Position numbers and translations under genes: made by a program. The notes beneath the pieces were generated by a model. The model did no database searches. It was not told the origin of the DNA and was given only the letters and a program-made list of their open reading frames with translations. From positions 5,184,001 to 5,248,000 of the forward strand of contig OZ001293.3 in assembly GCA_963921275.4 (NCBI GenBank): 64,000 bases of DNA, written 5' to 3'. The DNA comes from an uncultured Hormoscilla sp. GTDB lineage: Bacteria; Cyanobacteriota; Cyanobacteriia; Cyanobacteriales; Desertifilaceae. Positions 13,757-62,399 of this stretch are shown here, one piece after another (position 1 is the stretch's first letter; each line of letters opens with the position of its first letter).

Positions 13757-16700
13757 GTGATAGGCACCTTTAGAGAAGCTGTGACATCTGGCAATGACCA
13801 ACTCCAAACAATGATTGCGGAAATAGACGCAGTCCTCCACAAAGCAAGCCCTCGCCTACCTTGGGTGATGTCTGGAGATGTTGAAAGACAACGGCGGGTA
13901 CTAGAGCTAGTGCGCAGCTATCTGGTATCCCTGCAATCATCGGGGTCTCCTGGTGCTGCATATCCTGGGAGCGCTAGAAGCACAAAAGAGCAGACACCGC
14001 ACCACCATCGGCAAGCAGATGGCGATTATACTCAGACTCAAATTGGGCAAAGACCAGAAGCATCAGGCCCTCGGAGAAGTATGCTAGGTGCGGAGCTATC
14101 ATTACCAGCGACTGTTAAAAGCGCTACCCCAGAGACATCGCCTTCTCCTTATCGGGGCGGGGTAACACCTGGAGCCCTGAATCAGCAAATCTTGCAAGCC
14201 GTGGTGCAAGACCTGCGCAATAGTCTGATGGAACCAATACAAGGGGATCTCGAAGCGTTGCAACGGCAGCGAAGCGATCTGCTCGGGGAAATCAGGCAGC
14301 TGGAAAATCAGCGACAGCAATATTATATGGATCGGCAGGCAGCTGGACAACAACAGCTGATGCGGGAATTTTTGCAGGTGCTAACGGAACGCTTGCAGGA
14401 AAGCATGACCCAGCAGGTAGCCCAGATCCTGAAGAGTCTGGAAGCTGAGGCAGTTAGCTATATAGGGGAACTGGAGCCATCATCGGACTCTAATTACCCC
14501 TCTCACTCCCTACTCACTCCCTCAGACCGTCTGGCTCAAATGCGCATGCTGCAAGCTGAGTCGGACCAGCTATTGATGAAGTTAGACTCAAGCATCGCTG
14601 TGGTATTCGAGACGATACAGAAAAATATTGACAGCTATCAAGAGTCTCTGTCCCAAGGACTAGACAAAATGTATAATTTGGGACACCAGGGGGAGGTGAT
14701 GTTTAGCGCCTTGATCAATACTCTGGCAGAACAGCTGGGACGGGAGGCTTCGAGTTTTGTGCAATCTCGACCAGAAAGGTCGGGTAAAAAGGTCACTGAA
14801 TCAGGGTTGCAACTGCCAAAGGCTAATGATCCAGAGGAAAAACCGGAAATCGCTCAACCGGAACCAGAACTCAGTTAGTCGGCGACTCAGGAGTTACAAT
14901 CTAAGGAAATAGAGGGCTTCGAGGATTTGGCTCCAGATGCGTCAGAACCTACTATAGCAAGAAAAAGGCCGCCAGGAGCAGGGGCTCGAAATTCGTCAAG
15001 CCAGTCTCAGCAGTTGACAGAAGTGCTAGAGTTGCTGGAGAAGCTGAATATAAACCAGATCGCTCTTCGGCAAGATAGTTCGGGGAAAAAGCCGAGTAAA
15101 GGCGATGTCCCATCAGAGTCGGAACAGACCCCGACAAAAGAGCAAGATGCTGATGATGATGGTTTATTCGATGCGATGTTTGGTCCAGAGTCTTTGGCGA
15201 CGGGTAGCGAATCTCTCACCCAGTCAAATCAAGAAACAGCCAGTGAAAGTAGCAGCTCGAATGACGAAACCTCGATAAATCAAACTGCAACATTGGCGGA
15301 AGATTTGTTTGCGGAAGAGGAAGAACCAGCTCCGGAAGAAAGCCCGGAAACAGCAAGGTCGTTGGAGGACTGGTTGTTTGCTTCCGAGGGGGGGTCTGGC
15401 GCTGAAACGGCGGCGGCAGATAGGCCAACGGCGGCAGCAACAGAGGCGATCGATAATTTGGCGGAGCTATTCCCAGAGGAAGAAGACCTAGAGGAACCGA
15501 CTGAGACTCCAAAGGATTCCGCACAGGCACCATCGAAGTGGGTAGACTCATCGGATGTCTATATTCCAGCATCACCGGAGGAGGATTTGCTGCCCATAGA
15601 CGATCCGGAAGAGGATCCAGACCCCACTTGGATCTCGTTAAATCCTATCGCTATAAAACAGTTGAATGAAGATCTGGGCAATCTGGAAAAAGATCCACGG
15701 TCGGCGGCAAAAACACCAGAAAGCGCAGAGAGGGAAGTCAGGATTACGTTACAATCTCCAGAAGGGAAGCCTCATCAGACGGATGCTGCTGTCGATGACT
15801 ATGAGAGTGATGCGGTAGCAGCAGCCACCACCATTCCAGTTGAGGAGGAGAACCTAAACAGGGGGACTCTGTCGAATGTGACCTATCCTGAGTTGGCCTC
15901 GGAGGTAAGCTCAGCAGGGATAGAGTCGGAGTCAGAGTTTGATTCTAGCGAATCTTATACAGGGATAGAGTCAGAGGCTTTGAGTGCAGATTCACGTGCA
16001 GAGTCTTCGATGTCTCCGGAGAGCGCTAGAAGCACTACTCCGGAGACATCGAAGAATGATTGGGGATTTGAAGAACCAGAAGAGGATCCAGACCCAACTT
16101 GGATATCGCTAGAGCCGATCACCCAACAGCAGTTAAATGAAGCTCTGGGTCGGGACAAATCACAAAAGTCGGCGGCAAAAACCCCGGAAAGCGCGTCCAG
16201 AGAAAAAGAGGATGGCCCGGGTGAGGTGCGATCGCAAGAACAGACTCCGGCATTGGACGATCGGGGTTTGTCAGAAACAGAGGCAACAGAGTCTGGACCA
16301 GAAAATCAAACTTCAGAGATACAAAGTAGTGGAGAGGTCCAAACAGGGAGTGAGTCGGTGGATGCTGCGTTTGATGAGAGTGAATCTTCGGCAGCGATAG
16401 AGTCAGAGGTAGGGAGTACAGATTCGCGTACAGAGTCTTCGATGTCTCTGGAGAGCGCTAGAAGCACTACTCTGGAGACATCGGATTCAGATTGGGGATT
16501 TGACGATTGGGTTTGCCAGACATAGATGATACTTCTGCGCAGTCACGGCGCGATCGGGCCTCTGGCCCAGAGCAGAAAACCCCTAGGACTTATATACTCT
16601 CGGTGGAGACAGATGATGAGATGGGCCGCCTGTGTCCCCCCCCTCGTTCCCACGGCTCTGCCTGGGAACGTGCTCTTAGCGCTCCCGAGGGGCACAGGGA

Positions 16701-17273
16701 AGTAATGAATCACTCCCATCCTTGGGGAATGATTGGGGATTTGACGATTGGGGTTTGCCAGAGGTAGAGTCAGTGAAGACCAGATCGCCTGATTCCCAGG
16801 ACGATAATGAGGCGATTCGGGACTTCGATATCTCTGGGGAGCGATATTCGCACTACCCCAGAGATATCGAAGATTCGTCAGATGTGAGTCTGGATGGGTT
16901 TTTAGATGATATAAGCTCAGCAGCTCCAGGGCCAGAAACGAAAAGGGATGAATCACTCCCCTCCTCTTCGATATCTTCTGGGAGCGCTACCCGCACTACC
17001 CAGAAGATATCGGGGAATGATTGGGGATTTGACGATTGGGGTTTGTCAGATATAGATGAGGGAACCTCGGCACCAGAGCAGAAGCTCTCCGACTCGGTTT
17101 CGGGAACGGGAGAATCCCTTTCAGAGGAAAATCAGGCGCTGGCGGTGGATGAGTTTGATGATTTCTTTGCTGATGTGCCATCAACGGACTCAGAACGGTC
17201 GGCTCCCAGGGATCCTAAGGCTGGGGTGAAGACGGGCAGCCCTTCAACGTGTATTAATACCTACTTTACGTAA
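13757..17273 (+). pseudogene. Large coiled-coil plus acidic low-complexity cyanobacterial protein, split into three ORFs
   Basis: 13757-14878 and 14927-16525 are in the same frame separated by one TAG; 16722-17273 continues the DWGFDDWG repeats in another frame. Confidence 0.65.
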
Positions 17274-17375
17274 TCCGCTTTGTAATAGGTGAGGATTATC
17301 ACTGTACTTGTAGCGGCTGCGAACATTGACATACCCACCAAGGTTTGTGTATTATGTGCATAATGATTTCATATT

Positions 17376-17520
17376 AACTCAAGTTGCTACCTATTAAAAT
17401 TGCTACGTCCCAGACAGCCATTTTTTGCAAATATATCCGAAAAAATGCCATTCTGGGATAAGTCACAAGGCATTTTTTGCTGATTTTGGTGTTGAGGTTC
17501 TATAGGTAGCAACTTAGGTT
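17376..17520. mobile_element. IS982-derived MITE (145 bp)
   Basis: Ends AACTCAAGTTGCTACCTAT / ATAGGTAGCAACTTAGGTT match the ends of the IS982-family element at 60273-61286. Confidence 0.8.
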
Positions 17521-17843
17521 ATTACCAAGTGACGTGCGGAATGTGGATAATAAGCTATCGGATTTGCTCTTATAACTAAAATAGGGAACTCAAGCGTAAA
17601 TAATTGGACAAATTATCCAGTCGTCTGGATTCACCAGTTGGTACAGCCATAGAAATTGGGGAATTGATTTTTACCGAACTCCCATACAGAAAATATTGAG
17701 CGCAAAAACAAAGATTCGCCTTGCCGCAGGTGTATTATACTTATAATGAGAACAGCCATATAGTGTTTTTCAATCTGGTGAGGTATAGCATAATGATGCT
17801 ACCACGCTTTTGTGCCAATAACACTGCCCATGGCTGCGCCACG

Positions 17844-18490
17844 CTACGGGATGGGGGCGCAGCCATAGAATGTCAACACGACTGTACGGGCGCATCTAAA
17901 GGTTGGGGGTTGACATTGGGGCTGAGGAGAAAAGGGTATCTCCCGCGTTTTGACCCAAGCCAAGCGAAGATAGAGGAGATGCTCAAAGCCCGTGGAACTC
18001 CAACCCATACCCACCCCCTTAAAGCGTTGCTGAATTAACCATTTACAAGCACTCTCCACAAGGCCAGAACCCAAAGACAACTGCTCCTGTTCAAAGGCCG
18101 AATAAGCCACATGCTGGAGGTGATTTTAGAAATCTGCTTGGACTTGTGCCAGTACTTTCATGGATTCGGCGTTCAAAGTCACTCGATTCACCAGCCGAGT
18201 CAACTCCATGAGCACTTGGGTATGTTTGCCATGGCGCAGGAGATGTCGCCAGCGCTCAAAACAAATCTCAGCCGCTTCGGGGTCATGACCCAACCAAGCA
18301 GTCACCGCTCGCCATAGATGGCCTGCTGCATGGTCAAAGTCTAGAATACCGACCGCACAGTCGCCAAAAGCCTACTCCACCATCACGCTCGCCATACCAC
18401 CTTCGGTGCTTGATGTAGTCCTTGGTGCAATGATTCCCAAAGCCATCGGGGCTTTAAGATATCAATCTCTCCCAAAACTGCGACCAAGCG
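17844..18490 (-). pseudogene. ISKra4-family transposase C-terminal remnant
   Basis: 'LGSGLVESACKWLIQQRFKGVGM.WS..GF.HLL.LRLAW'; upstream part broken. Confidence 0.75.
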
Positions 18491-18587
18491 CCGTTGACAC
18501 AGACGGGTATAAAGCTTGCCTGTAGCGGTTTTGAGCAATTGTAAACGAGCTATTACCGCGACATGGAATAAAGCTCACCCGCAGAAG

Positions 18588-19259
18588 CTAATCCCGATCT
18601 GCAAAAATATAGCGAGCATAAGCTAAACACAAGCGGGCCTGTTCAATCTCAGATAAATCAGTCCAATTAGCCTTCGCCACCAAGCCCTGAATAGCCTCAA
18701 TGGCAGCATCAGTATCAGTTCCCCGCATAGCGTAAGCAAAAGGACGGGCTAAAACCTGCAAGTCTTCTACTGCCCACTGAGGCATTACCTCATAGGTACA
18801 TTGTACTAATTGCTCTGCCAGAGTAAGAGAGGAATTTTTTAGCTGCTTCACCTGGTGGCCGATCGCCTGTAGTAAAGCTGCGGGTATCTTGTTCGCAAAC
18901 TGGTCTTCCAGAACATTGGCCATTGTCTCGGGTGTCGCAGCATCCCAGAGTCGATCGAGATGGGCGAAAAATATTTGCGCACCCGCCGCCACTTCTGGCT
19001 CTGGTCTGTCTGTCAAGCTTGCGGTAGATGCTTCGAGTTCAGTAAAATAGGTTTGGGACTCTCTGGTCAGCGAACTCCAGGGATAAGTATATTCGGTAAA
19101 GCAAAGGGCTTGGAATAATTCAATCTCAGCTTCAGATCGAGAAGATAAAAAATACTGTGGCTGTATTTCTTGAGAAGGATTATTTAATCTTCTTTCGCCC
19201 CCTTCAAGGGAGTTGGTTGAGGGGAGATATTTGTCGTTCATAACACTATGTGAGGGCAC
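18588..19259 (-). CDS. Conserved cyanobacterial hypothetical protein
   Basis: 223 aa, 'YPW', 'W..EDLQVLARPFAYAMRG', 'LSEIEQARL'. Confidence 0.7.
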   Translation of the reverse strand: MPSHSVMNDKYLPSTNSLEGGERRLNNPSQEIQPQYFLSSRSEAEIELFQALCFTEYTYPWSSLTRESQTYFTELEASTASLTDRPEPEVAAGAQIFFAHLDRLWDAATPETMANVLEDQFANKIPAALLQAIGHQVKQLKNSSLTLAEQLVQCTYEVMPQWAVEDLQVLARPFAYAMRGTDTDAAIEAIQGLVAKANWTDLSEIEQARLCLAYARYIFADRD

Positions 19260-19516
19260 TGCTCTATTAACTGGCTATAGGTAGCTACATCTTAATTGCG
19301 GCTGTTTCCGTAACCGATTCCGAAATATATTTTTAATTAGGAAGATAGATGCAACAGTCAACTCGCGCCGCCACAGCAGCTATCTGCTTCACCTGCGGCG
19401 ATCGCCTGTGGTTTATGAAGATATCAGAACTAATCGCCCCAGCATGGCAGACGCGGGCGGGTGCTTAAGCATGTACCAGGCCAAGTAACCACTAACAACT
19501 GACTCGGACAGGCGAG

Positions 19517-19698
19517 CGATGTCTCCTGGGTAGTGCGTAAGGCGCGAGGTATGTCCCCTTTTGTGCGATTAGCGCTCTGTATCTCCCCTTTTGTGCGATT
19601 ACGATGTCTCCGGAGTAGTGCTTCTAGTGCTCTGATGGAGACATCGAGCTCCCAGGAGATACCTCGCCCCGGGACATACCTCGCCCCAGGAGACATCG
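19517..19698 (-). repeat. Four-level nested hairpin-element cluster
   Basis: Concentric inverted-repeat pairs CGATGTCTCCTGGG/CCCAGGAGACATCG, CGAGGTATGTCCC/GGGACATACCTCG, GTATCTCC/GGAGATAC, CGATGTCTCC/GGAGACATCG, each left arm followed by TAGTGC or TTTTGTGC. Confidence 0.85.
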
Positions 19699-19729
19699 AG
19701 CCGGTCCTACAAACTGACCGTCGAGCTGG

Positions 19730-21496
19730 TTACTGGCCACTGGTCGCTGAAATCGCGAACTCCAACATTTGACCTTGGGAACTGCCAAACTTCAGCTTGA
19801 CTCCAGATTTCAGTTCATATTCTTGATGATGGATTTTTCTCCAGCCATCCGACTCACAAATCAAGGTGCCATAGCGAGAAAAATCTCGCAGCCAGTAAGT
19901 CACCTCCCCGTCACCATTGCCCACAGGTTCGCGGCAGATAATTTCCGCATGCCTTTGAGAAACCCACTTCTCGCCAATGACGATGTCATTCTCTGGTCGC
20001 CTGCCTACTCGCATGAGTCCCCCCGTAACTTGCCATACCTGGGGGGCCGTATCTTCTAAAGACCGGATGCTAGCGTGAGGCTGATTTTTTTGCCGACTCG
20101 ACAAATAATTTTCTGGTAGTTCAGTCACCCCTTCCTCTAGAGGCATAATTAGTTCCCCATCAAACTCTGGATGCATATACAGAACTGGCAAAGTCCAAGC
20201 AGGTTGATTGAACTTATAAAGGGTGACCAACTGCTGCCGCGCTGCTGCCACCGCCCCATCGATCGGCAGGCGATTCGCCAAGGCCCCAGCAAAAGCCTGA
20301 ATAAAACTGAGGGCCTCTCGATCGGCAATTTCCTCACGCATTCCCAAAACTGCTGGCACCCCATGATGTAACAGTAGCTCCGCCAAGCTGCTACGGGGAA
20401 TCACCCGATCTCCGTCAGTATCCGGTTGAGCGCCCCAGCAGGCATTAAACACGGCCAATATCACCCGAGAGCGAGTCAATACTTGAGCCAGTTCCGTGCC
20501 AGACATGGTAACATCCGGTTGTAAAAACAGCAACCCACCATCTGGATCTGGGACACCGTGACCTCCATAGAAAAACACGTTGTAGACTTTTGTTTCCAGA
20601 CGTGCTATTAATTTAGCTGGGGTGGGCTGAATTAGGGTATCCACATTACAGGGCACTGGCATTTCGCCAACTCCCGCCTGTTGATATTGTCCTGGCGGTG
20701 TCTCCTGGGTAGTGCGATTAGTGATCCCAGGAGACGCAGATTTTTGCAGAATTTCAGCCACTACAGCTGCTTCCTGCTCCAGCTGCAAGAGCAGTCGATC
20801 TGATTTTTGCTGCCGAGGCAAGTCTGGTAATATTTTTCTCTGTCCATCCCCCTGCTGCCAGGATTGAGTGCTTGTCGGTGTTGACTGGCCAAAAACCAGT
20901 AGAATATTTAATGCTTGGTCGCTGCGTCTGGGTGGCAGGGGGTCAACATCACTGGTCGTGCGACTAAATAACAATTGCTCAGATAGGGAAATCACCTGTT
21001 TTCCCGCCTGACGTTGCATAATTTCCCAAGGTAGGGTGATTATATTTGGATCTCTGATTTCCAGCCGCAGCCGCAGGGGTTTATTTTGGCCAATGGCAAT
21101 GCCCAGACTTTGAGAGAAACTACTCTGAATCTGGCCATTATTATACACCCACTGCCATAGTCCCATCCCCAGCTTTTGCATCAGCTGGCTACTATAGCTT
21201 GATTTCTCACTCCCAGAGTCCGAAATTGCCTCTAGCATTGATTCCATTTCTGGCACATTCACTGGTGGCAAGTGGAGCTGGCGAGGCAACCCTTGCATCT
21301 GAAACATCTCCTGCCATGCTTGCCAGGTTCTGCTCAGCTGCTCTGGCCATATACAGTCATGGTGAACGTGGCCCCCTGGATAAGGAGCCTTGAGCACCCA
21401 TATGGCAAAATGTGCCGATTTCCTGTGGAAACTCTCCGCCGTCGCCATCATCCGGGCGATCGCAATACTGAGCGTCGGATACTCAAACTGAGACAT
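19730..21496 (-). CDS. CHAT (caspase/HetF-like) domain plus C-terminal FHA domain protein
   Basis: 'LPWE', 'YGGHG', 'VFNAC', 'VPAVLGM' CHAT motifs; FHA 'GRRPENDIVI...VSQRHAEI'. Confidence 0.88.
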   Translation of the reverse strand: MSQFEYPTLSIAIARMMATAESFHRKSAHFAIWVLKAPYPGGHVHHDCIWPEQLSRTWQAWQEMFQMQGLPRQLHLPPVNVPEMESMLEAISDSGSEKSSYSSQLMQKLGMGLWQWVYNNGQIQSSFSQSLGIAIGQNKPLRLRLEIRDPNIITLPWEIMQRQAGKQVISLSEQLLFSRTTSDVDPLPPRRSDQALNILLVFGQSTPTSTQSWQQGDGQRKILPDLPRQQKSDRLLLQLEQEAAVVAEILQKSASPGITNRTTQETPPGQYQQAGVGEMPVPCNVDTLIQPTPAKLIARLETKVYNVFFYGGHGVPDPDGGLLFLQPDVTMSGTELAQVLTRSRVILAVFNACWGAQPDTDGDRVIPRSSLAELLLHHGVPAVLGMREEIADREALSFIQAFAGALANRLPIDGAVAAARQQLVTLYKFNQPAWTLPVLYMHPEFDGELIMPLEEGVTELPENYLSSRQKNQPHASIRSLEDTAPQVWQVTGGLMRVGRRPENDIVIGEKWVSQRHAEIICREPVGNGDGEVTYWLRDFSRYGTLICESDGWRKIHHQEYELKSGVKLKFGSSQGQMLEFAISATSGQ

Positions 21497-21881
21497 TTAA
21501 TACCATTTATCTCAAATTAAAGGTGTAGTAGTTTTTTACCAGTCTACCAAAGAGTTGGATGGTGATCCATCTCTATTTGGGAAAGCTACAGTTTACATAG
21601 AGAGCTACAGTTGTCAGAGATGGTATATAAATATTATCATATCAAGTGACCACGTGGCAGGCCGTGTCACCCCTAGGAGCACTACCCAGGGGACGCCGAT
21701 CGCCACTCGCACTACCCGAGGGACACGGCGCCGAAGCACCAGCCCGACGTACCAGGACGGCTTACCGGACCGATGGTACGATCTAGTTAATCTCCGACAT
21801 TTGTTGCATATATAAAGAGCAAAAATAGAACATAAAATTAGGATCCTTGAGTTGCGCAGCAATATCAAATATAAAATTAGT

Positions 21882-23180
21882 ATGACGAACTATCCAGTTG
21901 ATAAAGGATTTATAAGATTTGTGACTAGCCTTGGCGAGCAGTCACAGACGGTTGAGCTGAACATCCGTCAGGAGGTTGCGATCGGACGAGACCCTAGCTG
22001 CCAGATTATTCTTGATTCACTTATTTATAGTGGTGTTTCTAGGCGTCATGCTGCCGTCTGTCCCCTGGCAGAGGCAGGCAGTTGGGAAATTTGTGACCTG
22101 AAGAGCGCTAATGGTACTTATGTAAATAACCAACGGATCTCAGGATGCCAAATTTTGCAGCCAGGCGATCGGATCGTGCTAGGTCAGAACATCGCAGAGT
22201 TAGTCTTTGAGGTGCAAGGGACATCCCCTCCTACTCAAGCATCAGCCCCGAGAACGACAGGTTCCGTGTCTCTCACCCAGCTTCTGCCCATTCTCTCAAC
22301 TGGAGCTTCCCTGATCGACAAAGCTTATCTAGTACCTGGTATCGTTACAGTTATATTTGTGGTGTCGATGTTTGCCACGATCGGCAACTTCGTCACTTTC
22401 GCCCTACTATTAGCAGCTTACTTATCCGGAGCGGCGTTCTACTTTGTCTACCAACTCTGCGGCAAACCTAAGCCTTGGTGGTTACTACTGGCTTTTGCCC
22501 TGCTCACTATCCTGATGATAGCGAGTCCCGTTCTGCATGGTTTTATAATCGTTTTTCGTGATTTCTTACCTGGCGATGTCGCTAGCTTGCCCTCAAATGC
22601 TAATTTTTTCTCTAACTTAATCGCTCACTTTTTTGGGGCGGGTTTGCTAGAGGAGTTACTCAAGGCATTGCCAGTGTTTGCTGCCTATTTCCTCGGACTG
22701 CTGTTAAGTTCCCCCTGGCGACAACGGATTGGCGTTTGCGAACCCCTGGATGGCATCTTGTTGGGCAGTGCTTCTGCGGTGGGCTTTACCTTGATAGAAA
22801 CTTTAGGGCAGTATGTTCCGGGGATTGTTATTGAGGTGACACGACAGTCAGGGAAAGGATTCGGACAATTAGCAGGTTTGCAACTTCTAATTCCCAGAGT
22901 TTTAGGTTCCGTTGTCGGACATATGGCCTACAGCGGCTATTTCGGGTATTTTATTGGGCTGAGCGTTTTGAGACCTAAGAAGCGTTGGCGCATTCTTTTA
23001 ATTGGCTATCTAAGTGCCTCAATGCTGCATGCTCTCTGGAACTCTTCGAGAGTTTTGGGTTCTTGGGTTTTGGCCTTAGTCGGAGCTTTGTCCTATGCCT
23101 TCTTAGCAGCAGCTATTCTTAAGGCTAGGGAACTTTCTCCTACCCGATCGCAGAATTTTGCCACTCACATTAAACCTTAA
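21882..23180 (+). CDS. FHA domain plus PrsW-family intramembrane glutamic protease
   Basis: FHA 'IGRDPSC...VSRRHA...SANGTYVN'; PrsW motifs 'EELLK', 'GFTLIET', 'HMAYSG', 'HALWN'. Confidence 0.88.
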   Translation: MTNYPVDKGFIRFVTSLGEQSQTVELNIRQEVAIGRDPSCQIILDSLIYSGVSRRHAAVCPLAEAGSWEICDLKSANGTYVNNQRISGCQILQPGDRIVLGQNIAELVFEVQGTSPPTQASAPRTTGSVSLTQLLPILSTGASLIDKAYLVPGIVTVIFVVSMFATIGNFVTFALLLAAYLSGAAFYFVYQLCGKPKPWWLLLAFALLTILMIASPVLHGFIIVFRDFLPGDVASLPSNANFFSNLIAHFFGAGLLEELLKALPVFAAYFLGLLLSSPWRQRIGVCEPLDGILLGSASAVGFTLIETLGQYVPGIVIEVTRQSGKGFGQLAGLQLLIPRVLGSVVGHMAYSGYFGYFIGLSVLRPKKRWRILLIGYLSASMLHALWNSSRVLGSWVLALVGALSYAFLAAAILKARELSPTRSQNFATHIKP

Positions 23181-23454
23181 TCTGGTTAATTACTAATTGA
23201 CTTGCAGTCATAGCTAAATGTAGGGTCAGCAACGAAGCGCCCACCAGACGCTACAACGGGTGCATCTCAGATTTGCTTGCTTGAGCAATTCAAAATTCAA
23301 AATTCTTTCTTCAAAATTCAAAATTCAGAAGTAAAAATTGAGAATTGCTCCATTTTCCATAGCGCTACGCGCACTGTGTATACGCCATTTGCAATTAGCA
23401 CGATTACATTCGCAAATACAAATGCTTGCATTGAGATGCTCCCCGCTACAACTA

Positions 23455-25449
23455 TTAGTTTGATATGGGTGGTGGTAGATTGTCTGGTGGCTCTTCTGGT
23501 GGTGGCTCTTCTGGTGGTGGAGTTTCATCAGGTCGATCCACTGCTGGTAATAATCTATCTTGAAGTTTCTTTTTGAGCCGATCAAACTTTGATATAATTT
23601 CAGCTGACCGCTCGTCAACCAATTTCCTGAATGATGGATACTTTAAGTAAGTCCAGATGCTCCCTCCACTTATTATCGCTATCAAGATTAAAATACCTGC
23701 TAATCTAGCAGCCCATCTACCATATCGGGGCCCATGAATTCTGTCCTTTACTGCTATAGAAGTCGTCGCACCAGTAGTATCCGAGTTTCTATATAGAGAA
23801 GCTTGCCAAATTTCTGCTTTATCCTCGAAGGGAGAGAGTTGATATGGCTCTCCCAGCTTGGTTAAAGGCTGTACTTTTCGATCTGTTTGCTGCACTTGAC
23901 AATGGACTAACCCCACCGTAACATTATCATGACCATTTTCAGTGTTAGCAATATTTACCAGACTCTTGGCTACTCTCGCCAGATCGACATTTTCCTGTAT
24001 AATTCGCAGAATCTCTGACCTCCAATGTTCCTCTACCCGATCGTTATCACTCAACCCATCTGAGCACAGCAGAAAAACACAGTCTGAGTCCAATATCAAC
24101 CGCCCTACCGTCGGGTGCAGCGTCATTGAGGCACTCATACCTAATGCTTGGATCAGGTAACCGGATGTAATCTGTTGCAAGGCATCCCGATAGAAAGCAT
24201 AGCCCAAGCGTACCTCTCTAGATGCTACATCATCATCTAGGGTTACTTGATCGCAACCATCTTCTGTAATCCAATAGACCCGAGAATCTCCCACATGCGC
24301 GATGTAGGTTTCATAATCCTGCACAACTGTCATCACCACAGTTGTGCCCATGCGTTGCCGATACTGCCGGTCTTCATTATCATTGCGATCGCTAATCCGA
24401 TCGTTGGCATCTCGGATTGCCTGGTCTAGTGTTTGATATAGGTTTGACCGGTTCCCACCCGATCTGGCAAGCTGATTGACTCGATCCCCGATGGTGTCGA
24501 TCGCCAGATTTGAGGCCACATTGCCTCCTTTATGTCCGCCAATGCCATCACAGACGATCGTCAAAGCACAGTTCCTGTCTGCTGGCTTTAGTACCTTACC
24601 ACTGGATGGATAACAGGCATCTTCGTTGCGTCCGCGAGTAGGGCCCTTATCGCTGAGGGTAGCAATCTGGCATTGGACAGATTGGGCCGCTGAGCAATGA
24701 GCTAATGCATAATCTAACTGATCTATCAGTTCCTGCCATTCCAGTTGTTCTTTGCTCAGTTGACTAGATAGTTTTTTCAGAAATTCGGCAATTTCTGGTT
24801 GGGCATCGGGGGCCCATTTCGACCATAGCTTACCTAAATTTTTCAGACTGCTAAGAGATTTCTGGTCTGATTTCAACTCCAACAGACACAGTAAGTGACC
24901 TCGGCACCGCAGCAGATTTTCCTCTAGCAATGTCGAAGCTACATTCTGATTGCTGAGGGCCTTCCACAGCTGGGCTATCTGCCACAGCCAATTCAACTGG
25001 CGCATGACACTTGCCTGCTTCCAGACGTTAGTTAATTCTGGCAATAATGGGTTATCAGTTTCGGCCGACTCTAATTTCGAGATGTCGATCGGTCCTTTTT
25101 CCAGCAGCAGGATCGATTTTCCGGAGCCAGAACCTGCTGATACCAGTGCATAGGCTTGGGGGACATGCAGCCGATAGGGGAAAAGTCTCAGATAGGGTAC
25201 TGCCCGTGAGGGAATCTCATCTGGGGGTGCTTCCGGCGGTTCCCCGGGTTTGGCGTCCAGAAAAATCCGATCTGCTTTGCGTATATAACGTCCGTTACCC
25301 AAAGTCGATGGACAGCGTTCTTTGCTGACAGCCCACAGATAGCGTTTTGGTATCCTACTGCTGCATTGGGAGCAGAAATTATTTTTCTCGTCATTTGGAG
25401 TTTGACAATCTGGATTGGGGCAGTTTATGTTTGCCGCAGTTTTTTGCAT
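23455..25449 (-). CDS. PP2C/PPM Ser/Thr protein phosphatase with N-terminal Cys4 zinc ribbon and C-terminal TM segment
   Basis: 'RGRNED', 'VCDGIGGH', 'MGTT', 'HVGDSR', 'LCSDGLSD', 'GHDNVT'; CPNPDC..CSQC at N-terminus. Confidence 0.92.
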   Translation of the reverse strand: MQKTAANINCPNPDCQTPNDEKNNFCSQCSSRIPKRYLWAVSKERCPSTLGNGRYIRKADRIFLDAKPGEPPEAPPDEIPSRAVPYLRLFPYRLHVPQAYALVSAGSGSGKSILLLEKGPIDISKLESAETDNPLLPELTNVWKQASVMRQLNWLWQIAQLWKALSNQNVASTLLEENLLRCRGHLLCLLELKSDQKSLSSLKNLGKLWSKWAPDAQPEIAEFLKKLSSQLSKEQLEWQELIDQLDYALAHCSAAQSVQCQIATLSDKGPTRGRNEDACYPSSGKVLKPADRNCALTIVCDGIGGHKGGNVASNLAIDTIGDRVNQLARSGGNRSNLYQTLDQAIRDANDRISDRNDNEDRQYRQRMGTTVVMTVVQDYETYIAHVGDSRVYWITEDGCDQVTLDDDVASREVRLGYAFYRDALQQITSGYLIQALGMSASMTLHPTVGRLILDSDCVFLLCSDGLSDNDRVEEHWRSEILRIIQENVDLARVAKSLVNIANTENGHDNVTVGLVHCQVQQTDRKVQPLTKLGEPYQLSPFEDKAEIWQASLYRNSDTTGATTSIAVKDRIHGPRYGRWAARLAGILILIAIISGGSIWTYLKYPSFRKLVDERSAEIISKFDRLKKKLQDRLLPAVDRPDETPPPEEPPPEEPPDNLPPPISN

Positions 25450-25659
25450 GGAATTTCCTCGCGCCAATGAGCTAGGGGTTTGTGATTTTTCCGATTTTTC
25501 CGGAACGGTGGGCTAGCGACCAGTTATCAGCAATTTCAGCCCACGAGGTGACTCTTCGTCGGTCTGTACTCCCCGTTTTCTAGGTTATAATCTTTAGCGT
25601 TTGCCGTTTTTAGTAAACGCTTTAGCGTTTGCCTATTCAATCCATTATAGATCGCTATC

Positions 25660-26640
25660 ATGACCACTATATCTGCAGACACTACCAGTACTACTACTCA
25701 TACCTGGAGCTGGCGAGGTTTTCCCATCCGCTATCAAACTCAAGGAACTACCGGTCTGTGTCCCCCCTTTTGTGCGAGTAGCGCATGCGCTGCGCGCACG
25801 CTACGCGATCCCGGGGGATACAGACCTGCTGTGGTGATGGTGCATGGCTTTGGGGCTTCCTGCGCCCACTGGCGTAAAAACTTGCCAGTGCTGGGGACTG
25901 CTTGCCGTTGTTATGCGATCGACTTGATCGGTTTTGGCGGTTCCGCCAAACCTACTCCTGGGGTAGATATCGACTATACCTTTGCCATCTGGGGAGAGCA
26001 AATTGCTGATTTTTGTCAGGAAGTCGTGGGCGATCGGGTTTTTTTGGTAGGCAATTCCATTGGTTGTATTGCCCTGATGCAGGCAGCTGTAGATTATCCA
26101 GATCTGGCTTATGGAGTGGTGCTGATCGACTGTTCCCTGCGGCTATTACACGAGCGCAGACGACACCAGCTATCATGGCATCAACGATTTGGAGCCCCCA
26201 TCCTGCAAAATCTGCTAGCAGTCAAATGGATTGGGCAGCTATTCTTCAATCAAATTGCCCAGCCCCAAGTTGTGCGCAAGATTCTCCTGCAAGCCTACAA
26301 GCGTCCAGAAGCTGTCACCGACGAACTGGTAGACTTGCTGATCGCACCTGCCAGGGATACCGGTGCTGTCGATGTGTTTCTCGCCTTCACCCGCTATTCT
26401 ACTGGGCCACTTCCCGAAGCTCTCTTAGCCGAACTGAAATGTCCCGCTTTGATCCTCTGGGGAACGGAAGATCCGTGGGAACCGGTAGACCTGGGGCGTC
26501 AGTTAGCTGAATTTCCAGCAGTAGAGAAGTTTATTCCCCTGGCAGGTGTGGGACATTGCCCCCAAGATGAGGCACCGGAGCTAGTTAATCCGATTTTACT
26601 CGATTGGATCGAGGAGTTGCAAGGTAAAAATCAAAATTAA
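25660..26640 (+). CDS. Alpha/beta-fold hydrolase carrying a 69-bp in-frame hairpin insertion
   Basis: 'HGFGAS', 'GNSIG' nucleophile elbow, 'GHCPQDE'; extra LCPPFCASSACAARTLRDPGGYR encoded by 25756-25824. Confidence 0.9.
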   Translation: MTTISADTTSTTTHTWSWRGFPIRYQTQGTTGLCPPFCASSACAARTLRDPGGYRPAVVMVHGFGASCAHWRKNLPVLGTACRCYAIDLIGFGGSAKPTPGVDIDYTFAIWGEQIADFCQEVVGDRVFLVGNSIGCIALMQAAVDYPDLAYGVVLIDCSLRLLHERRRHQLSWHQRFGAPILQNLLAVKWIGQLFFNQIAQPQVVRKILLQAYKRPEAVTDELVDLLIAPARDTGAVDVFLAFTRYSTGPLPEALLAELKCPALILWGTEDPWEPVDLGRQLAEFPAVEKFIPLAGVGHCPQDEAPELVNPILLDWIEELQGKNQN

Positions 26641-26777
26641 AATATTTTTTCTTGTTCGCTTGACTTTCAGTGAACTAAAACAGTTGACAGGTGTAGAGGC
26701 CGATCGATGTAAAAAAGCAAGAATTAAACTGCATACCACCGGCTCCATACTGTTTGGGTATGACTTAAGGAGTTGAT

Positions 26778-27290
26778 TTACTCTACTGGGATGTCCTTAC
26801 GCTTCTGTACCAAGAGTAGGAGCGCAAACATTGCTGCCATTAGAATGCCCAATATACCCCAATGTCTAACCACATTCACCTTGAACGCAGAGCCATAATC
26901 TTCATGGAATTTGCGAATTATACCTTCTGCTTCACCGATGGCACTTTCCCGTTTTTCCTTCCACTCGCTATACTGCACTTGCCAGCTATTTACATCTTTT
27001 TTGTACTGACTGAGCTTATTCTTGTATGTCTCAAATTCCCTTGGATCTGACTGAAACTCACCTGGAGCTTCTGGTTTATCCGGTTCCGGCTTGTCTACAG
27101 CCTGGTTGTATTTTGCCTTAAGGCCAGGAAACTCACATTGTTTGAACAGTTGGGATCCTAAGCATGTGCAGCGTTCCTTTTCAGCCTTAGTCAGGTCTTT
27201 AGGTTTATTCTCTGACTGCTCGGAGAAGCACTTATCATCGGCTAGATCAGAACCTATGCCTGTTATTGTCACCAGGGAAAACGCATCTAA
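26778..27290 (-). pseudogene. Orphan C-terminal fragment of a cyanobacterial (FHA-)ABC transporter permease
   Basis: Cys-rich loop and terminal TM 'WGILGILMAAMFALLLLVQKRKD'; no ATPase or N-terminal part upstream. Confidence 0.6.
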
Positions 27291-27863
27291 ATTTTTTTGA
27301 CAAAAAACGGCTCTTATGCTACGAACAATTTTTTCTGACCATATTTGACAAGAAACGATATATATGGTACTATAAGGACTCGATCGGTTAATTGGCCTAA
27401 AAATGTGGTAAACTTTGTATCATGGCTACCAACAGCCGAGACAGCTCTAGATGGCTAGGCTTCCAGCTCACAGATTAAACTAAGCCAACGGGTCACCCCG
27501 CCGACTCGTCTTCAGAACCGGACGTGAGACTTTCACCTCATCCGGCTCCTCAGTTTCGCCATCCTTGTCATGGATACGGCCTTTGTCACCATCTCTGGCA
27601 GACTTTACATCATGGCAATAATCATGCAGCAACTGTAGGTTGGTATACCAGTCTTTACCTCCTTTAGAAACTGGTAGAATATGGTCAACCTCCCATTTGT
27701 CGCCATCTTTGAATTTCAGTCCGCAGTGCACACACTTACCATCCTGCTCTTTTAGCAGTCTGATAACTCTAGCGCTCACATCCGGGCTTTTTCTCAGTCT
27801 TTTGCTCCAATAAACCAGATTACCGTCAAACGGGCTAGCTGTCCCCTTAACCTTTACGTGTCT

Positions 27864-56720: not shown

Positions 56721-57172
56721 TACCTGATAATGAACTTTTACTATACTATGTGGCTCTTCGTGAAATGGTATGCGTTCATTGCCATCGGAATAGCCTAAAA
56801 CACTTGCTTCGTCTAGGGTTGAGGTTGTCGCCGCGCGGGAGCGACTGATCTGCAAGGCACAGGCGTTGGAACCATTATTGGTAAAGGGTTTCAGGCGCAT
56901 TAGCTATGATTTTAGCATACTAGATTGGGAAGAGCCTACTATGTATTAGGGGTCGAGCTGGGAATCGCTTCGGAACCCTCCCATTCGGAACCGGACTTGC
57001 GACTTTCACCGCATCCGGCTACTGGGTAGTAGGTTCTTTGTCAATGGTAGGTAACTTTTGGATTACTCCCGTTGTCCCTTGTCCCATGCGATTTGGCTCC
57101 TTTCCTGGTTGGTGAGTGGCGCTGCCGGATAACCTTTAGTGTCACCATTGTCATGTCCGTTTTACCAGTAAT

Positions 57173-58693
57173 ATTAAACTAAGTAAGGGTGTCACCACTC
57201 CTACTCGTCTTCAGAACCGGACTTGAGACTTTCACCTCATCCGGCTCCTCAGTAACGTCATCCTTGTCATGGATACGGCTATTACTACCATCACTGGCAG
57301 TTTTAGTATCGTGGCAATGTTTGTGCAGCAACTGTAGATTGGGATACCAGTCCTTGCCCCCTTTGGATAGGGGTAGGATGTGGTCTACTTCCCATTTGTC
57401 GCCGTCCCTAAACGTTAGTCCGCATTGTTCACATTTGCCCTTTTGTCTTTTGAGCAGGTTCACGACCCTTGTGCTCAACTCTGGGCTCTTACCTAATCTT
57501 ATGCTCCAATATGGTAGGTTACCGTCGTATGGGCTAGCTGTCCCTTTTACCTTTATTTGTCTGATTATCTCAGTTTCGGCGTGTTTGGTTAGCGTCACCT
57601 CTGTGCTTTTGTCTGTCTTACCTCTGAAACACCATTTAACTTCCTGGTTTACAGACCAGTATTTACTAGCTATCCAGTGGCTTGACTTGTTGGGATGCCT
57701 TCTCTTTGCCCATTGCCATAGTATCTCCCATAAGTATTTATCCATGTTGGCGTAAGTTTCCTTACTTACCACCGTTCTGAAGTAGTTGGCCCATCCCCGT
57801 ATTACCGGGTTTAGCCTGCTAATCAGGGCTGCTTGTGGTGCCGTTTTATGGCTGGTTACGATTTGCGCTAATCGTTCTTTATGCTTCCCTATAGATTTCT
57901 TGCTGGGCTTGACTATGGTTTTGAAGCCTAGGGGGGATTTTACCAGTAACCTTTGGAGTCTGCGAACCATCCGCTCGTTGCCTTCCAGTGCCGCTCTGTA
58001 AATTCGTTTTTGCAACTTAAAGACTACCCGCTCCAGCCGAGGCCAAGGAATATCCTTCCATTCATTCATCGATTCTGAAACCGTGCTCATGACGTATGCA
58101 TTGCTACTTACAACTTCACAATTGACGTTACCGTGAGGGCGTCAGCGTATCCTATCCATTACAGACAGGCGTTTGCTTCTCCACGAAATCTCTCCCAAGT
58201 ATGACCTGCCTGATGAAAGCAGATGTTGCGCCTGTGGTGGCTACTCTACCTATCGACCAGTGGTAGAGAGTGCATACCTGGGTTACTTCGTTCCTCTAGA
58301 TGATTGGTTGTAGTTTTAGGTGGACTCTATATGCCGGGTTTATTGTCAGTGCTTATTGGTCGGTTAGGGAACCGCCAATGACCATTATCCTTTCCCTTTT
58401 GGGTCAGCGTGTAAGCCTTTCCGCTGGTTGATGTGACGACACTTATGAGTTTTCGCTTTCGCTCACCATGACCACTTGCTTGGCGATCACCGATTTAGGC
58501 TACCAGTCAGTGCGCCTTTTAACCCCGCTTTACGGATTGATGCCATCGCTACCGTAGGGGTTACGCTTTCACTCCTGCACCTGGAGGGGTGGGCTTTCAC
58601 CACCATCATCTAAAAGTTGTCAGGGCTAATGGAACCCTGAGTGGTCCAAATTTTTGACTTGTGTCAAGTTATTTTACACTAAACGAATCGCAC
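57173..58693 (-). mobile_element. Group II intron U (1521 nt) nested in domain IV of the outer intron
   Basis: GTGCGATTCGTT at 58693, domain V GAGCCGGATGAGGTGAAAGTCTCAAGTCCGGTTC, end GTTTAAT at 57173. Confidence 0.9.
57179..58090 (-). CDS. Group II intron-encoded protein with in-frame deletion of the RT core (N-terminal RT0 part + maturase X + HNH)
   Basis: 'W..LERVVFKLQKRIYRA..LQRLLVKS' joined directly to 'KPSKKSI..LNPVIRGWANYF..WAKRRHP' and HNH; no YADD. Confidence 0.88.
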   Translation of the reverse strand: MSTVSESMNEWKDIPWPRLERVVFKLQKRIYRAALEGNERMVRRLQRLLVKSPLGFKTIVKPSKKSIGKHKERLAQIVTSHKTAPQAALISRLNPVIRGWANYFRTVVSKETYANMDKYLWEILWQWAKRRHPNKSSHWIASKYWSVNQEVKWCFRGKTDKSTEVTLTKHAETEIIRQIKVKGTASPYDGNLPYWSIRLGKSPELSTRVVNLLKRQKGKCEQCGLTFRDGDKWEVDHILPLSKGGKDWYPNLQLLHKHCHDTKTASDGSNSRIHDKDDVTEEPDEVKVSSPVLKTSRSGDTLT

Positions 58694-58915: not shown

Positions 58916-59199
58916 CAGCGCATTAAGCCTTATTTCGCTGGTTGGGTTTAACGAGGTTTACATAGGTTCGCCTGTTCTAGCCATGGACATCATCGAGCGC
59001 GTCCTCACCGGTAAGGGCTACCAGTTATCCTACATTTGAGTTCTCGCTTAGCACCACGACGATGTTATTTCGCAGCACCTCCAACCGGTGTTACCCCCGT
59101 ACCTGGGGAGGGGGAATTAAACCCCCATGATTACCAGAGTTCCTAGTTTCCTAGGCCAGCGTTCCGTATATGACTACGTTAGGCTGGAACTCATCGCAC
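58916..59199 (-). mobile_element. 5' part of a second copy of intron family Y nested in W
   Basis: Start GTGCGATGAGTTCCAGCCTAACGTAG identical to 9398; again directly after ATTCCC in host domain I. Confidence 0.85.
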
Positions 59200-59283
59200 G
59201 GGAATTTAACCCCCATGAATACCAGAGTTCCTAATTTCCTAGGCTAGCGTTCCGTGTTTGACCAGGTTAGGCTAGAACGAATA

Positions 59284-60117
<834 letters not shown>

Positions 60118-60272
60118 TGCACTAACCTAGTTCTGTCAAGAAGACGGACAACTATCCGAAAACCGTTCGAGAATTCGCAAATCTTCGCCCAGGTTCTAGC
60201 ATAAGCCAAAATACTCATTACAAAAATGGGATGCACCCATGTGCAACTCCTTCAGTTCCATTCACATATATT

Positions 60273-61286
60273 AACTCAAGTTGCGACCTATAAAAATTGG
60301 ATACAAAAAGCTATGATAAAGAGAATTATTTTCAACTCTAATCCCTTAGATGTAACAGCATGAATTGACTTGGGAAACAAATTGGTGATTCGACTAAAAC
60401 AGGTTTCAACTTGTTTTCTTGTTACTTTTTGTATATATTCAAAACAAGAAGATTCTTTTCTTTTTGAGTTCTTTTTTCGCAAAGCTTTTAACATTATACT
60501 TGACGACTCTTTTAGTAAATCCTCTAATTGATAATCATTATAAGCTTTATCTCCATAAACTATTGAATTTGATGGTAAGTCAAAGCCAAAAGATTGCAAA
60601 ACTTTAACATCATTATAACTACCAGGATCTAGATAAAATTCTATTGGCTTTCCATTTTTGTTTACCAACATATGAACTCTTAATCCATAAAAATAACGTT
60701 TTTTACTGGCAATATACCCTCGATATTCTTCCTTGTTATAAATTTAGCATCTATCAATCCTAATATTATCACATACTGGCACCGGGAAACTATCAAGAAT
60801 ATATTCTTGACCCGGATTGAGCTCTTTAAATGTTTGAGCTATAACTTGGAAGAAAAACATCCAAATTGCTTCGTCAATATTGTGTAATCGACGATTGAAC
60901 CTACTTTTACTTAACAGATTTTTTATATACTTGTGTTCGACCATAAATTGACAAGAGCGATCGTGGTGTCCTCCGAAAAAATATGCAGCAACTAATCCGA
61001 CTGTCATCACTTCGGCATTGTTCATTTTTACTTGTGGATCTTCTTTTATATTTAACGCTTTTAGTAGCTCGTCACAAAGAACAAAAATTGTTGTAATCAT
61101 ATCTTCCATCATCTACATCCCCCAGCAATTAACTATTATTTTAGTACATTATAACCTATAAACAGCCAACCCGCCGTCTAGCACAAAAAAAATATAATTT
61201 TGTATCAAAAGCTACGAAATATCCCAAATATCTGTAAAGTCTAAGTGGGTAATTCATATTTTTTTTAATAGGTCGCAACTTAGGTT
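60273..61286 (-). mobile_element. IS982-family element; transposase (61112-60288) interrupted by one nonsense codon
   Basis: 'ILDSFPVPVCDNIRI', 'YGDKAY', 'RKQVETCFS', 'IHAVT..G'; TAA at 60744-60746 in frame; terminal inverted repeats. Confidence 0.9.
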
Positions 61287-61455
61287 ATATTATAACTTAG
61301 CCCTACCCCTCCCACCGTAACTTGCGTCACCGGTCCAACTCACGGTTTGTCCCAGAGGGCATTCCTGTCTGCCCTAGCCACAGAACGCAAAGAAATATTA
61401 AGATGGAAGTGAGCAGAACTGTTCGAAATTGGCCCCACTACTGAGTGAAAAATTC

Positions 61456-62019
61456 ATGACTACTGAAGTACTGGTAGAAAAGAAAAAGCTGGAAAAGCCC
61501 CCCTTACAGATCCATAACTTGGGCGATCGGGTGTTGCGCCAGCCAGCGAAGCGGGTATCACGGGTAGACAACGAGATCCGACAACTAGCCAAAGAAATGC
61601 TGCAAACCATGTATAGCGCTGATGGCATTGGTTTAGCAGCGCCCCAAGTAGGAGTGCTCAAGCAGCTGCTGGTGGTAGACTGTAAACCAGACGAAGCCGA
61701 TAATCAGCCAGTAATTTTGCTCAACCCCAGCATCAAGAAATTTAGCCGCGAACTGTGCCTCTTCCAGGAGGGGTGCCTCAGCATTCCCGGAGTCTTCCTA
61801 GATGTGAAACGTCCAGAAGCAATAGAAGTAGCCTACAAAGATGTGAACGGATGTCCGCAGGCCTTAACCACAACAGGACTGCTAGCTAGAGTAATTCAGC
61901 ATGAACTGGATCACCTCAACGGCATCATGTTCGTGGACAGGGTGGAGAATGTGCTGGCCTTGAACCAAGAACTGGCCAAAAACGGCTTTTCTGCCCAAGC
62001 AGTCAAGCCAGTAGCTTAA
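61456..62019 (+). CDS. def: Peptide deformylase
   Basis: 'GIGLAAPQ', 'EGCLS', 'QHELDHLNG'. Confidence 0.98.
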   Translation: MTTEVLVEKKKLEKPPLQIHNLGDRVLRQPAKRVSRVDNEIRQLAKEMLQTMYSADGIGLAAPQVGVLKQLLVVDCKPDEADNQPVILLNPSIKKFSRELCLFQEGCLSIPGVFLDVKRPEAIEVAYKDVNGCPQALTTTGLLARVIQHELDHLNGIMFVDRVENVLALNQELAKNGFSAQAVKPVA

Positions 62020-62150
62020 TTTTCACTTCTCTTGGGAAGCATCTCAAGCATGAATTAAGAAACCCGGTTTTTACTGAAAACGGGTTAGAGGGCTACCACT
62101 TCTGTGTAAGTGTACGTACCAATACAGTTCGTTGAATAATAATGATGTTT

Positions 62151-62215
62151 GTGCGATTCGTTCCGGTATAAACCATAAGGTGAAATCCGGGCTGTGTCAT
62201 TGACAATACTCCGGA
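62151..62215 (+). mobile_element. Group II intron 5'-end fragment
   Basis: GTGCGATTCGTTCCGGTATAAACCATAAGGTGAAATCCGGG resembles the family Z 5' end; no downstream domains recognisable. Confidence 0.6.
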
Positions 62216-62399
62216 CAAAATTAGGAGGCTATGGCCCCGTAGGCAAGCAGGTTCTGGTAGTTCCTTCGATGTCTCCTGGTGCTGCCGAAACGTAGGAGCG
62301 CGGTTGAGCACTACCCACGTTTCGGCAGCGCGCTAAAAGCACAGCTGGTGGGGAGACATCTTTGTGAGATTTAATCTTTCCTTGGCTCATACAAAGAAA

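Follow-up and report, generated by a model that had tools for sequence, protein, structure and literature searches.

Are the short stem-loops that recur through one stretch of a cyanobacterial genome a mobile element in their own right, and if so, how do they spread? The stretch, which we call the window, comprises 64,000 nt of an uncultured Hormoscilla sp. (contig OZ001293.3, positions 5,184,001-5,248,000 of the forward strand, assembly GCA_963921275.4), and an earlier note on it had described a dispersed family of tiny hairpins that share a loop and insert in frame into genes. We find that this family is mobile, and its element, ends and nesting can be seen directly at filled and empty sites. 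We consider it probable that the copies belong to a selfish micro-element, about 45 nt long and non-coding, which is limited to one genus of sponge symbionts and spreads as a hairpin recognised through its loop. How the smallest mobile DNAs move, such as repetitive extragenic palindromic sequences (REPs), small dispersed repeats (SDRs) and Rickettsia palindromic elements (RPEs), and how proteins tolerate them, is largely open. The genome analysed (G000; 7.03 Mb, 47.4% G+C, 4738 octamers of the highly iterated palindrome HIP1) was compared with four others of the same genus (G001-G004, five Hormoscilla genomes in all), and gene context was taken from open reading frames (ORFs) only, not from annotation.

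The hairpin unit and the pairing of its arms

A search of the window for the loop motif AGCGCTANNNGCACTA, allowing up to two mismatches, gave 16 matches in both orientations; 100 dinucleotide-preserving shuffles gave a mean of 1.04 and a maximum of 4, and none reached 16. The dispersal over both strands claimed by the earlier note is thus borne out, and a genome-wide pattern search extends it to about 700 loops. G000 holds 702 half-loops of the form TANNNGCAC(TAC/AAA), of which 342 have GCGC ahead and count as intact. A scan that was blind to the loop, looking for perfect inverted repeats of at least 10 bp, peaked at a spacer of 16 nt with 203 repeats, and 139 of these carry a loop of the AGCGCTA-N3-GCACTA type. 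The same scan yielded a second loop of 15 nt, ACGCACGGCGAAAAC, on the same kind of stem. Adding the 77 loops of this second type brings the total in G000 to 779 loops; they form 569 clusters, of which 426 consist of a single loop. The main contig carries all 323 catalogued matches of this genome.

The unit is a 44-47-nt palindrome, (T)TCGRTGTCYCCNGGG-A-GCGCTANNNGCAC-TA-CCCNGGRGACAYCGA, with a stem of 14-16 bp and a loop of 16 nt. The consensus of 170 canonical G000 copies, anchored on the loop, reads (T)TCGRTGTCYCCNGGG - A - GCGCTA NNN GCAC - TA - CCCNGGRGACAYCGA. A form that had been taken for another version of the loop, GCACAAAA, does occur, and is better described as an alternative right junction in which AAAAG replaces TACCC. 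The stems had been called variable, which overstates the case: they are not arbitrary and have a strong shared consensus, in which a few positions co-vary with their partners (n = 170):

Positions -13 / +14: A 76, G 88 / T 81, C 81
Positions -8 / +9: T 129, C 40 / A 129, G 41
Positions -5 / +6: T 87, G 49, C 33 / A 88, C 47, G 33
Positions -3 / +4: G 134, A 36 / C 134, T 36

The claim that the stems stay self-complementary holds for most copies in the genome. Among 194 intact TA-type loops of G000, 85 are paired at all 14 positions and 159 show no more than three mismatches. Within these 159 the two arms of a copy mismatch at 5.1% of positions, as against 30.4% when arms are paired across copies; left arms of different copies differ from each other at 30.6%. 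The 223 well-formed copies fall into 199 distinct 44-mers with 122 distinct left stems, and one and the same stem sequence is found with many loop triplets.

Copies from other genomes show the same constraint. We took 72 of the 73 Hormoscilla sequences from an exact-pattern scan, dropping one at a contig end and two that were not from Hormoscilla. The 72 copies contain 161 cells with changes on both sides of the stem, a count in which the three innermost pairs are set by the search pattern; shuffles gave 62.8 +/- 9.8, with none of 500 reaching 161, and sliding the partner position left 47-83 two-sided cells. Base pairing is therefore kept through two-sided changes.

Filled and empty sites, nesting and distribution

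The mobility of the family was evident from 14 clean pairs of filled and empty sites plus two nested ones. The clean pairs were drawn within G000, where copies in repeated DNA were set against empty paralogues, and between genomes, where the copies of 72 congener loci could be placed in G000 at 36 sites. Omitted for flank divergence were #1, #13, #14, #40, #48, #50, #59, #78, #84, #95, #135 and #141, as were L052 and L066 (flanks too diverged) and L026 (a composite); the nested pairs #74, #99, #106, L019 and L062 were kept apart. The inserts measure 44 nt (four), 45 nt (eight), 46 nt (one) and 47 nt (one). All 14 are seamless, with target bases neither lost nor duplicated and without any duplication of more than 2 nt. 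We could not find a flank word shared by the 14 inserts, the left flank included. Stems and loop move together, which makes the entire hairpin the mobile unit. By our own reading of the alignments, the insert begins with an unmatched T in 5 of the 14 pairs, and in 9 of the 14 its first bases and the right flank have 1-2 nt in common. Insertion into HIP1 (CGATCG), suspected from the CGAT..ATCG ends, was rejected, as the empty sites are other targets.

At the 36 orthologous sites, about 20 are filled in both genomes, and 10 are filled in the congeners and empty in G000. The earlier note had held that orthologues carrying the same segments would speak against mobility; many do carry them, and the empty sites leave mobility unrefuted. 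Two inserts in the window show presence and absence across the genus. The block at 25756-25824 is present in G000, G002, G003 and G004, and G001 is empty, reading ACCGGT/CCTGCTG across the site. The copy at 20694-20738 is absent in G002 and G003 (TTTTCCT/GATTTTT), and G001 has a decayed copy there. Taken with the tree of a single region, 4.6 kb of the window locus, which reads (G001,(G000,(G003,(G002,G004)))), this pattern implies either that the copy was lost seamlessly, with no direct repeats on its flanks, or that the same place was hit twice.

Copies also lie in one another. Among 199 well-formed copies, 41 are nested in the orientation of their host and 2 in the opposite one. There are two fixed nesting places, both in the 5' half of the host loop, and the junctions are readable to within 1-3 nt. 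In the first, copies ending in CGATG..CATCG, together with the second-loop TGATG..CATCA type, are set in the host loop with its GAGC before them and its TA after; in the second, copies ending in GAGG..CCTC or GCTGC..GCAGC lie between the left arm of the host and GCGCTA. An inserted-copy end (ATCG or ATCA) stands directly ahead of 176 of the 702 half-loops, and the 112 resolved left junctions include GAGCT 44 times and TCGCT 33 times. Two nested sites were found in both states: at L019 the copy in G000 is nested and the loop of the relative is intact, and at L062 the reverse is seen. At both, TCGCT or TCGGGA plus the hairpin takes the place of the host-loop bases GAGCGC.

Copies that stay in place also change. 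About 20 orthologous pairs show stem changes in a single arm and zero compensating pairs. The block differences between orthologous copies concern the loop triplet, a nested junction (GCTC vs GGGA) and chiefly the right junction. The copy at 16969-17012 has three states, TACCCA in G000, a 24-nt hairpin followed by GAGGGA in G002, and AAAAGA in G004, and three other copies have AAAA in G000 and the 24-nt hairpin in relatives. Genome counts of the states that follow CTANNNGCAC are:

TACYC: G000 288, G001 33, G002 102, G003 104, G004 147
AAAAG: G000 78, G001 4, G002 13, G003 15, G004 20
24-nt hairpin: G000 11, G001 0, G002 25, G003 22, G004 21

AAAAG might be a footprint of the 24-nt hairpin, a direction of change that the locus tree does not settle. 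The 24-nt hairpin is itself a repeat, GTTCCCAGGCAGAGCCGTGGGAAC, seen in the window at 16657-16680 on the reverse strand, often with GAGG after it and with 142 both-strand matches in G000; it follows GCAC of the 45-nt element at 11 places in G000 and at 21-25 in three congeners. One further locus, L048, has its 16-nt loop inverted between identical stems in two congeners relative to G000.

It is possible that no dedicated enzyme is involved, and that templated insertion, template switching between arms and gene conversion, all of them replication errors at hairpins, leave the family as a by-product. Such errors would account for the 1-2 nt common to element start and right flank at 9 of 14 clean junctions, for variable ends and lengths of 44-47 nt, and for the inversion at L048 and the block swaps TACCCA/AAAAGG and GCTC/GGGA. 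Template switching between short inverted repeats is stated to homogenise the arms and to invert the spacer (PMC8604942, PMC8794818), and recombination between such repeats is given as another source of the inversion (PMC8604942). However, this explanation does not tell us why one 16-nt and one 15-nt loop dominate over hundreds of copies with 122 left stems, or why nesting is one-way (41 vs 2) at two fixed loop positions. The orthologous pairs, with single-arm changes only, give no visible sign, on that time scale, of arms being matched anew in place. We therefore regard an enzyme-free origin as rather improbable.

The family is confined to one genus, Hormoscilla. Pattern GAGCGCTANNNGCACWA occurs 237, 93, 64, 61 and 28 times in the five Hormoscilla genomes, 0-1 times in 36 genomes of the same family or order, and 0-2 times in 400 more of the phylum; a reversed-pattern control gave 0-3 in those genomes. 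Among the matches listed in a public species collection, 73 of 75 are titled Hormoscilla metagenome-assembled genomes, and viral contigs gave no match to the hairpin pattern. With exact ends, one-way nesting, own-stem pairing and five genomes spanning an eightfold range of copy number, among which a mover could be looked for by comparison, the family offers an unusually clean data set. The repeats also break short-read assemblies of sponge-symbiont genomes because contigs end at them, as seen in four public runs whose contigs stop at hairpin repeats.

Copies in the window and in genes

Nine listed window places were folded as single-stranded DNA, with an energy and a z-score for each. Seven of the folded places are stable hairpins (z -4.3 to -9.5). 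The copies of the window are:

13952-14003 (+): decayed copy with the AAAAG right junction, in ORF 13757-14878; -5.1 kcal/mol, z +0.18
16006-16053 (+): intact 48-nt copy with triplet GAA, in ORF 14927-16525, read ..SSMSPESARSTTPETSK.., also in G002; fold of 16004-16055 -23.1 kcal/mol, z -8.75
16438-16484 (+): copy with CTGG in both arms and two G.T pairs; fold of 16440-16483 -12.5 kcal/mol, z -5.1
16629-16698 (-): copy holding the 24-nt hairpin GTTCCCAGGCAGAGCCGTGGGAAC straight after the loop GCAC; -19.6 kcal/mol, z -4.3
16823-16872 (+): intact copy with loop AGCGATATTCGCACTA, in open frame 16722-17273, common to G002 and G004; -20.0 kcal/mol, z -9.5
16969-17012 (+): intact copy with triplet CCC; -15.0 kcal/mol, z -7.7
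19517-19698 (-): four copies nested one in another; -50.3 kcal/mol, z -8.5
20694-20738 (-): 45-nt insert of 15 codons in the CHAT-FHA gene 19730-21496 (-); fold of 20693-20740 (-) -10.6 kcal/mol, z -4.7
21661-21729 (+): a pair of degenerate copies, both truncated, lying upstream of ORF 21852-23180
25756-25824 (-): 69-nt insert of 23 codons, a 45-nt copy plus a nested 24-nt repeat, in ORF 25660-26640; fold of 25748-25818, a span that cuts the element, z -1.23
62268-62359 (+): two nested copies, of which the inner one ends in GCTGC..GCAGC and separates the left arm of its host from the loop; -26.1 kcal/mol, z -5.0
22104, 23361, 24639 and 63639: further loop matches with 1-2 mismatches

The fold is lost at 13952-14003, where G000 has AAAA and both G002 and G004 have the 24-nt hairpin plus GAGG. 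The nested block at 19517-19698 is common to G002 and G003, with block differences, and the copy at 16438-16484 sits in a stretch of about 480 nt that is missing from G002. The element that had been placed at 25753-25826 is present, and its bounds are better given as 25756-25824. Over 13000-27000, Rfam returned nothing for the hairpins and a single miRNA match at chance level (E 0.69); at gathering threshold over the whole window it returned group II intron matches only.

Five of the copies lie in an acidic repeat protein gene at 14927-17273, which is built of DWGFDDWG modules and has no Pfam match. In G000 this gene is broken by a stop at 16523-16525, within the stretch of about 480 nt that G002 lacks, and G004 lacks about 1.3 kb at the same locus.

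The inserts in genes are whole-codon copies, as the earlier note had claimed. The 15-codon insert falls within the CHAT-domain match of the CHAT-FHA protein (P0001), and the 23-codon insert lies just on the N-terminal side of the alpha/beta-hydrolase domain of P0002; two ORFs that match no Pfam family hold more window copies. The added peptides are found as translated (SPGITNRTTQET; the frame of SPESARSTTPETS is by our own reading). Such inserts lengthen proteins by 15-23 residues, which annotation will miss. Genome-wide, 66 of the 223 well-formed copies (30%) lie in open frames of at least 200 codons, 47 of them sense and 19 antisense, compared with 52% of 3000 random spans. The commonest frame among the sense copies is AGC GCT ANN NGC ACT ACC (S A x x T T), shared by 34 of the 47. 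Insert lengths are multiples of three in genes, and because they span 44-47 nt in non-coding repeats, the whole-codon length in genes looks like a filter imposed by selection and not a property of the mechanism.

The rarity of copies in long open frames, and the near-perfect pairing of most copies, would also suit fixed hairpins that serve the host as protein-binding sites, RNA stabilisers or terminators, as some REPs and bacterial interspersed mosaic elements do, and that selection keeps locus by locus. We find this very unlikely. At 10 of 36 sites close relatives differ in whether a copy is present, copies are found within genes and within other copies, no T-run follows the stem in the sequences inspected, and the family is limited to one genus with an eightfold range of copy number.

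Mode of spread and relation to known repeats

How might a selfish hairpin of this kind travel? The whole stem-loop is copied or moved as a unit and lands seamlessly, with no target bases duplicated or deleted, at sites without a common sequence. In the loop of another copy it lands in one orientation and at two fixed places, giving rise to Russian-doll stacks, and the gene copies that persist are those that add whole codons in a hydrophilic Ser/Pro/Gly/Thr peptide frame tolerated by the protein. The seamless entry, the possible seamless exit at 20694-20738, the preference for hairpin loops as targets and the strict orientation point to spread as a folded single strand, most likely DNA, with a trans-supplied factor that would sense both the conserved loop AGCGCTA-NNN-GCACTA and a stem. 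This part of the proposal, a folded strand whose loop is recognised by a trans-acting structure-specific enzyme, is tentative, and we give it somewhat less than an even chance. Only copies with pairing arms might leave offspring, or the arms might be re-templated on each other; either would explain why almost every copy has its own stem and yet pairs near-perfectly.

More speculative still is the idea that Hormoscilla hosts an undescribed activity which takes 24-47-nt stem-loops seamlessly in and out, reads the 16-nt loop, lands one way in loops and leaves freshly matched arms, the TACCC, AAAAG and 24-nt hairpin plus GAGGG states being its entry and exit marks. We hold this joint reading to be doubtful; if true, it would represent a new transposition chemistry for the smallest mobile DNA.

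Several results weigh against a loop-recognised, single-stranded element. The conservation of the loop is partly built in, because copies were collected by their loop, and the loop triplet and right junction vary between orthologous copies. Nested landings cost 2-6 host loop bases and stand-alone ones none, so that one simple cut-and-join scheme fails to explain both types of landing. IS200/IS605-type insertion sequences (IS) enter 3' of a fixed 4-5-nt target without duplication, and the conserved 5' target word that their enzymes need was not seen at the clean inserts. There is no replication-strand bias along the chromosome and no clear excess of G.T among stem mismatches (50 G.T, 39 A.C, 43 other), and neither strand is thus marked as the active one. 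The public runs, whose contigs stop at the repeats and in the RNA run cover only scraps, give no read-level evidence of current movement, transcription, splicing or polymorphism. No mover was found in G000 among the Y1, TnpB and neighbour-gene searches: the eight TnpB matches include five aligned copies that share ends of IS605 type, unlike the hairpin, and no gene family recurs beside copies apart from the reverse transcriptases (RTs) of group II introns and large ordinary families. The recurrent ORFs between or beside copies are group II intron RTs, histidine kinases, ABC transporters, IS fragments and Uma2-like ORFs, the last four names being our reading of the sequences and not the result of a family search.

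The suggestion that a HUH/Y1 gene might co-occur with the hairpins did not hold up. G000 has only two Y1_Tnp matches, of 69 bits and 23 bits. The stronger one, a Y1/RAYT-like (REP-associated tyrosine transposase) gene at G000:C1:241795-242139 in a 206-codon frame, has a GTAG-type palindrome ..AAAGCCCGCCTGCGCGGGCTAC.. on both flanks (241400-242700) and looks like an ordinary REP-RAYT pair beside the hairpin family; as its flanks carry this different REP, it was rejected as the mover. The 23-bit match has zero hairpin copies within 1.5 kb, and Y1 counts in the five Hormoscilla genomes (2, 4, 6, 4, 4) do not track hairpin numbers. The only mobile-element genes that recur among the neighbours are intron RTs.

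Group II introns are abundant at this locus. The window has seven matches to domain V/VI (1642-1719, 11254-11331, 12824-12901, 27474-27551, 56945-57023, 57173-57250 and 59284-59361). An apparently ORF-less intron lies at about 12820-13657 on the reverse strand; the genome holds 289 copies of its 5' end, and its homing site resembles CTAGA-N3-GYGYA. Hairpin loops hold 3 of 70 listed intron 5' ends (289 found), after GTAGTGCG. A direct hairpin-intron link was suspected because the loop, read on the reverse strand as GGGTAGTGCGATT, looks like the end of an exon joined to the start of an intron. It was rejected: only about 6 nt are kept among the loop variants, and the intron 3' end mismatches. 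We treat the resemblance as likeness to a homing site.

These introns make an RNA route conceivable, in which transcribed hairpins would be reverse-transcribed by one of the many RTs of the genome and the cDNA inserted elsewhere; Elhai et al. 2008 reportedly proposed such a spread for Nostoc SDRs. Besides the abundance of introns, the recurrence of intron RTs near copies (3 intervals; 7 ORFs), the slight surplus of G.T over A.C mismatches and the sense bias in open frames are in line with it. However, the 14 clean inserts have neither A-tails nor graded 5' truncation and measure 44-47 nt, the G.T excess is weak, and selection on the encoded peptide would account for the sense bias equally well. 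The three introns in hairpin loops are there by homing-site likeness, and since the loop resembles a homing site, the nearby RT genes are explained without a role for RT in hairpin spread. We judge the RNA route improbable, slightly more so than an enzyme-free origin, and return to the selfish hairpin.

Where does such an element stand among described repeats? It is best read as akin to REPINs (REP doublets that form hairpins), Nostoc SDRs and Rickettsia RPEs and a member of none of them, the SDRs being compared by their reported size, structure and nesting. We could not find a description of the hairpin family in full-text literature searches on cyanobacterial repeats, REPINs and Hormoscilla, which did not extend to supplements, and the passages searched in two Hormoscilla genome papers make no mention of it.

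Like REPs and REPINs, as these appear in the available parts of two sources (PMC3116915, PMC3733652), the hairpins are short dispersed palindromes in hundreds of copies, with sub-families that have alternative complementary stem bases and with occasional copies in genes; REPs, too, are thought to move as single-stranded hairpins. The hairpin family also keeps its fold through compensating changes and has sub-families. The stem-loop of a REP has as its hallmark a GTAG or CGTC tag left unpaired at one of its ends (PMC3733652), whereas the hairpin ends are (T)TCGRTG...CAYCGA without an end tag, and GTAG occurs only within the loop, on the other strand. REP stems measure 5-13 bp, in contrast to 14-16 bp with a 16-nt loop here. 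Moreover, the hairpin arms are not REPs themselves, the RAYT-like gene of G000 is flanked by another, GTAG-type repeat, and the hairpin copies nest one-way in each other's loops.

The SDRs, of which Elhai et al. 2008 reportedly described SDR1-8 of 21-27 nt in Nostoc punctiforme and relatives, are likewise very small repeats of a HIP1-rich cyanobacterium, with a mover yet to be named in either case. They reportedly share with the hairpins a secondary structure with compensating changes and nesting in their own copies, which we also find here. The hairpin inserts of 44-47 nt are about twice the size reported for SDRs, and the stand-alone copies are not inserted in HIP1; two 24-nt repeats of the SDR size class do occur in G000. 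Hormoscilla, moreover, is a genus that we take to lie outside the Nostocaceae. According to the available part of one source, no SDR-like repeat was found outside that family (PMC5861425).

RPEs offer a parallel for the gene copies, being palindromic selfish DNA that lies in frame in unrelated protein genes and is translated as an extra peptide (Ogata et al. 2000, as summarised in PMC10969869). In-frame insertion and a recurrent peptide frame are seen in the hairpins as well, but size and sequence differ: RPEs are about 150 bp long and alphaproteobacterial, nesting goes unmentioned for them in the available part of that source (PMC10969869), and only about 30% of hairpin copies lie in long open frames. 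Transposable elements of the miniature inverted-repeat kind (MITEs) resemble the family in being non-coding, with terminal inverted repeats and many copies; yet the hairpin inserts without target-site duplication and is far below the 204-bp Correia element or the RPEs of about 150 bp in size (PMC10969869, same part). A search for a parent IS with the same ends, which was not exhaustive, found none. With IS200/IS605 elements and their miniature, palindrome-associated derivatives (PMC6006769), the family has in common seamless insertion without target duplication, possible seamless loss and dependence on hairpins. It differs in that its single hairpin is symmetric, where those elements have a different hairpin at each end, and in having no conserved 4-5-nt 5' target at the 14 inserts and no matching Y1 transposase in G000.

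Other small repeats were observed in the same genome. A 22-24-nt repeat, GCGCTGCGCGCACGCTACGCGA (window 25785-25808), has 219 genome matches with at most 2 mismatches, and its end together with the flank often makes the HIP1 octamer GCGATCGC. Contig C3 of G000 (31,420 bases) has 17.6% G+C, against 47.4% for the main contig, and zero HIP1; it may come from another organism or an organelle. A third hairpin family, represented at G000:C1:917647, 2233026 and 3992910, combines conserved 17-19-bp stems, CCCCCCGAAGCAATCTCC, with variable loops of 10-36 nt.

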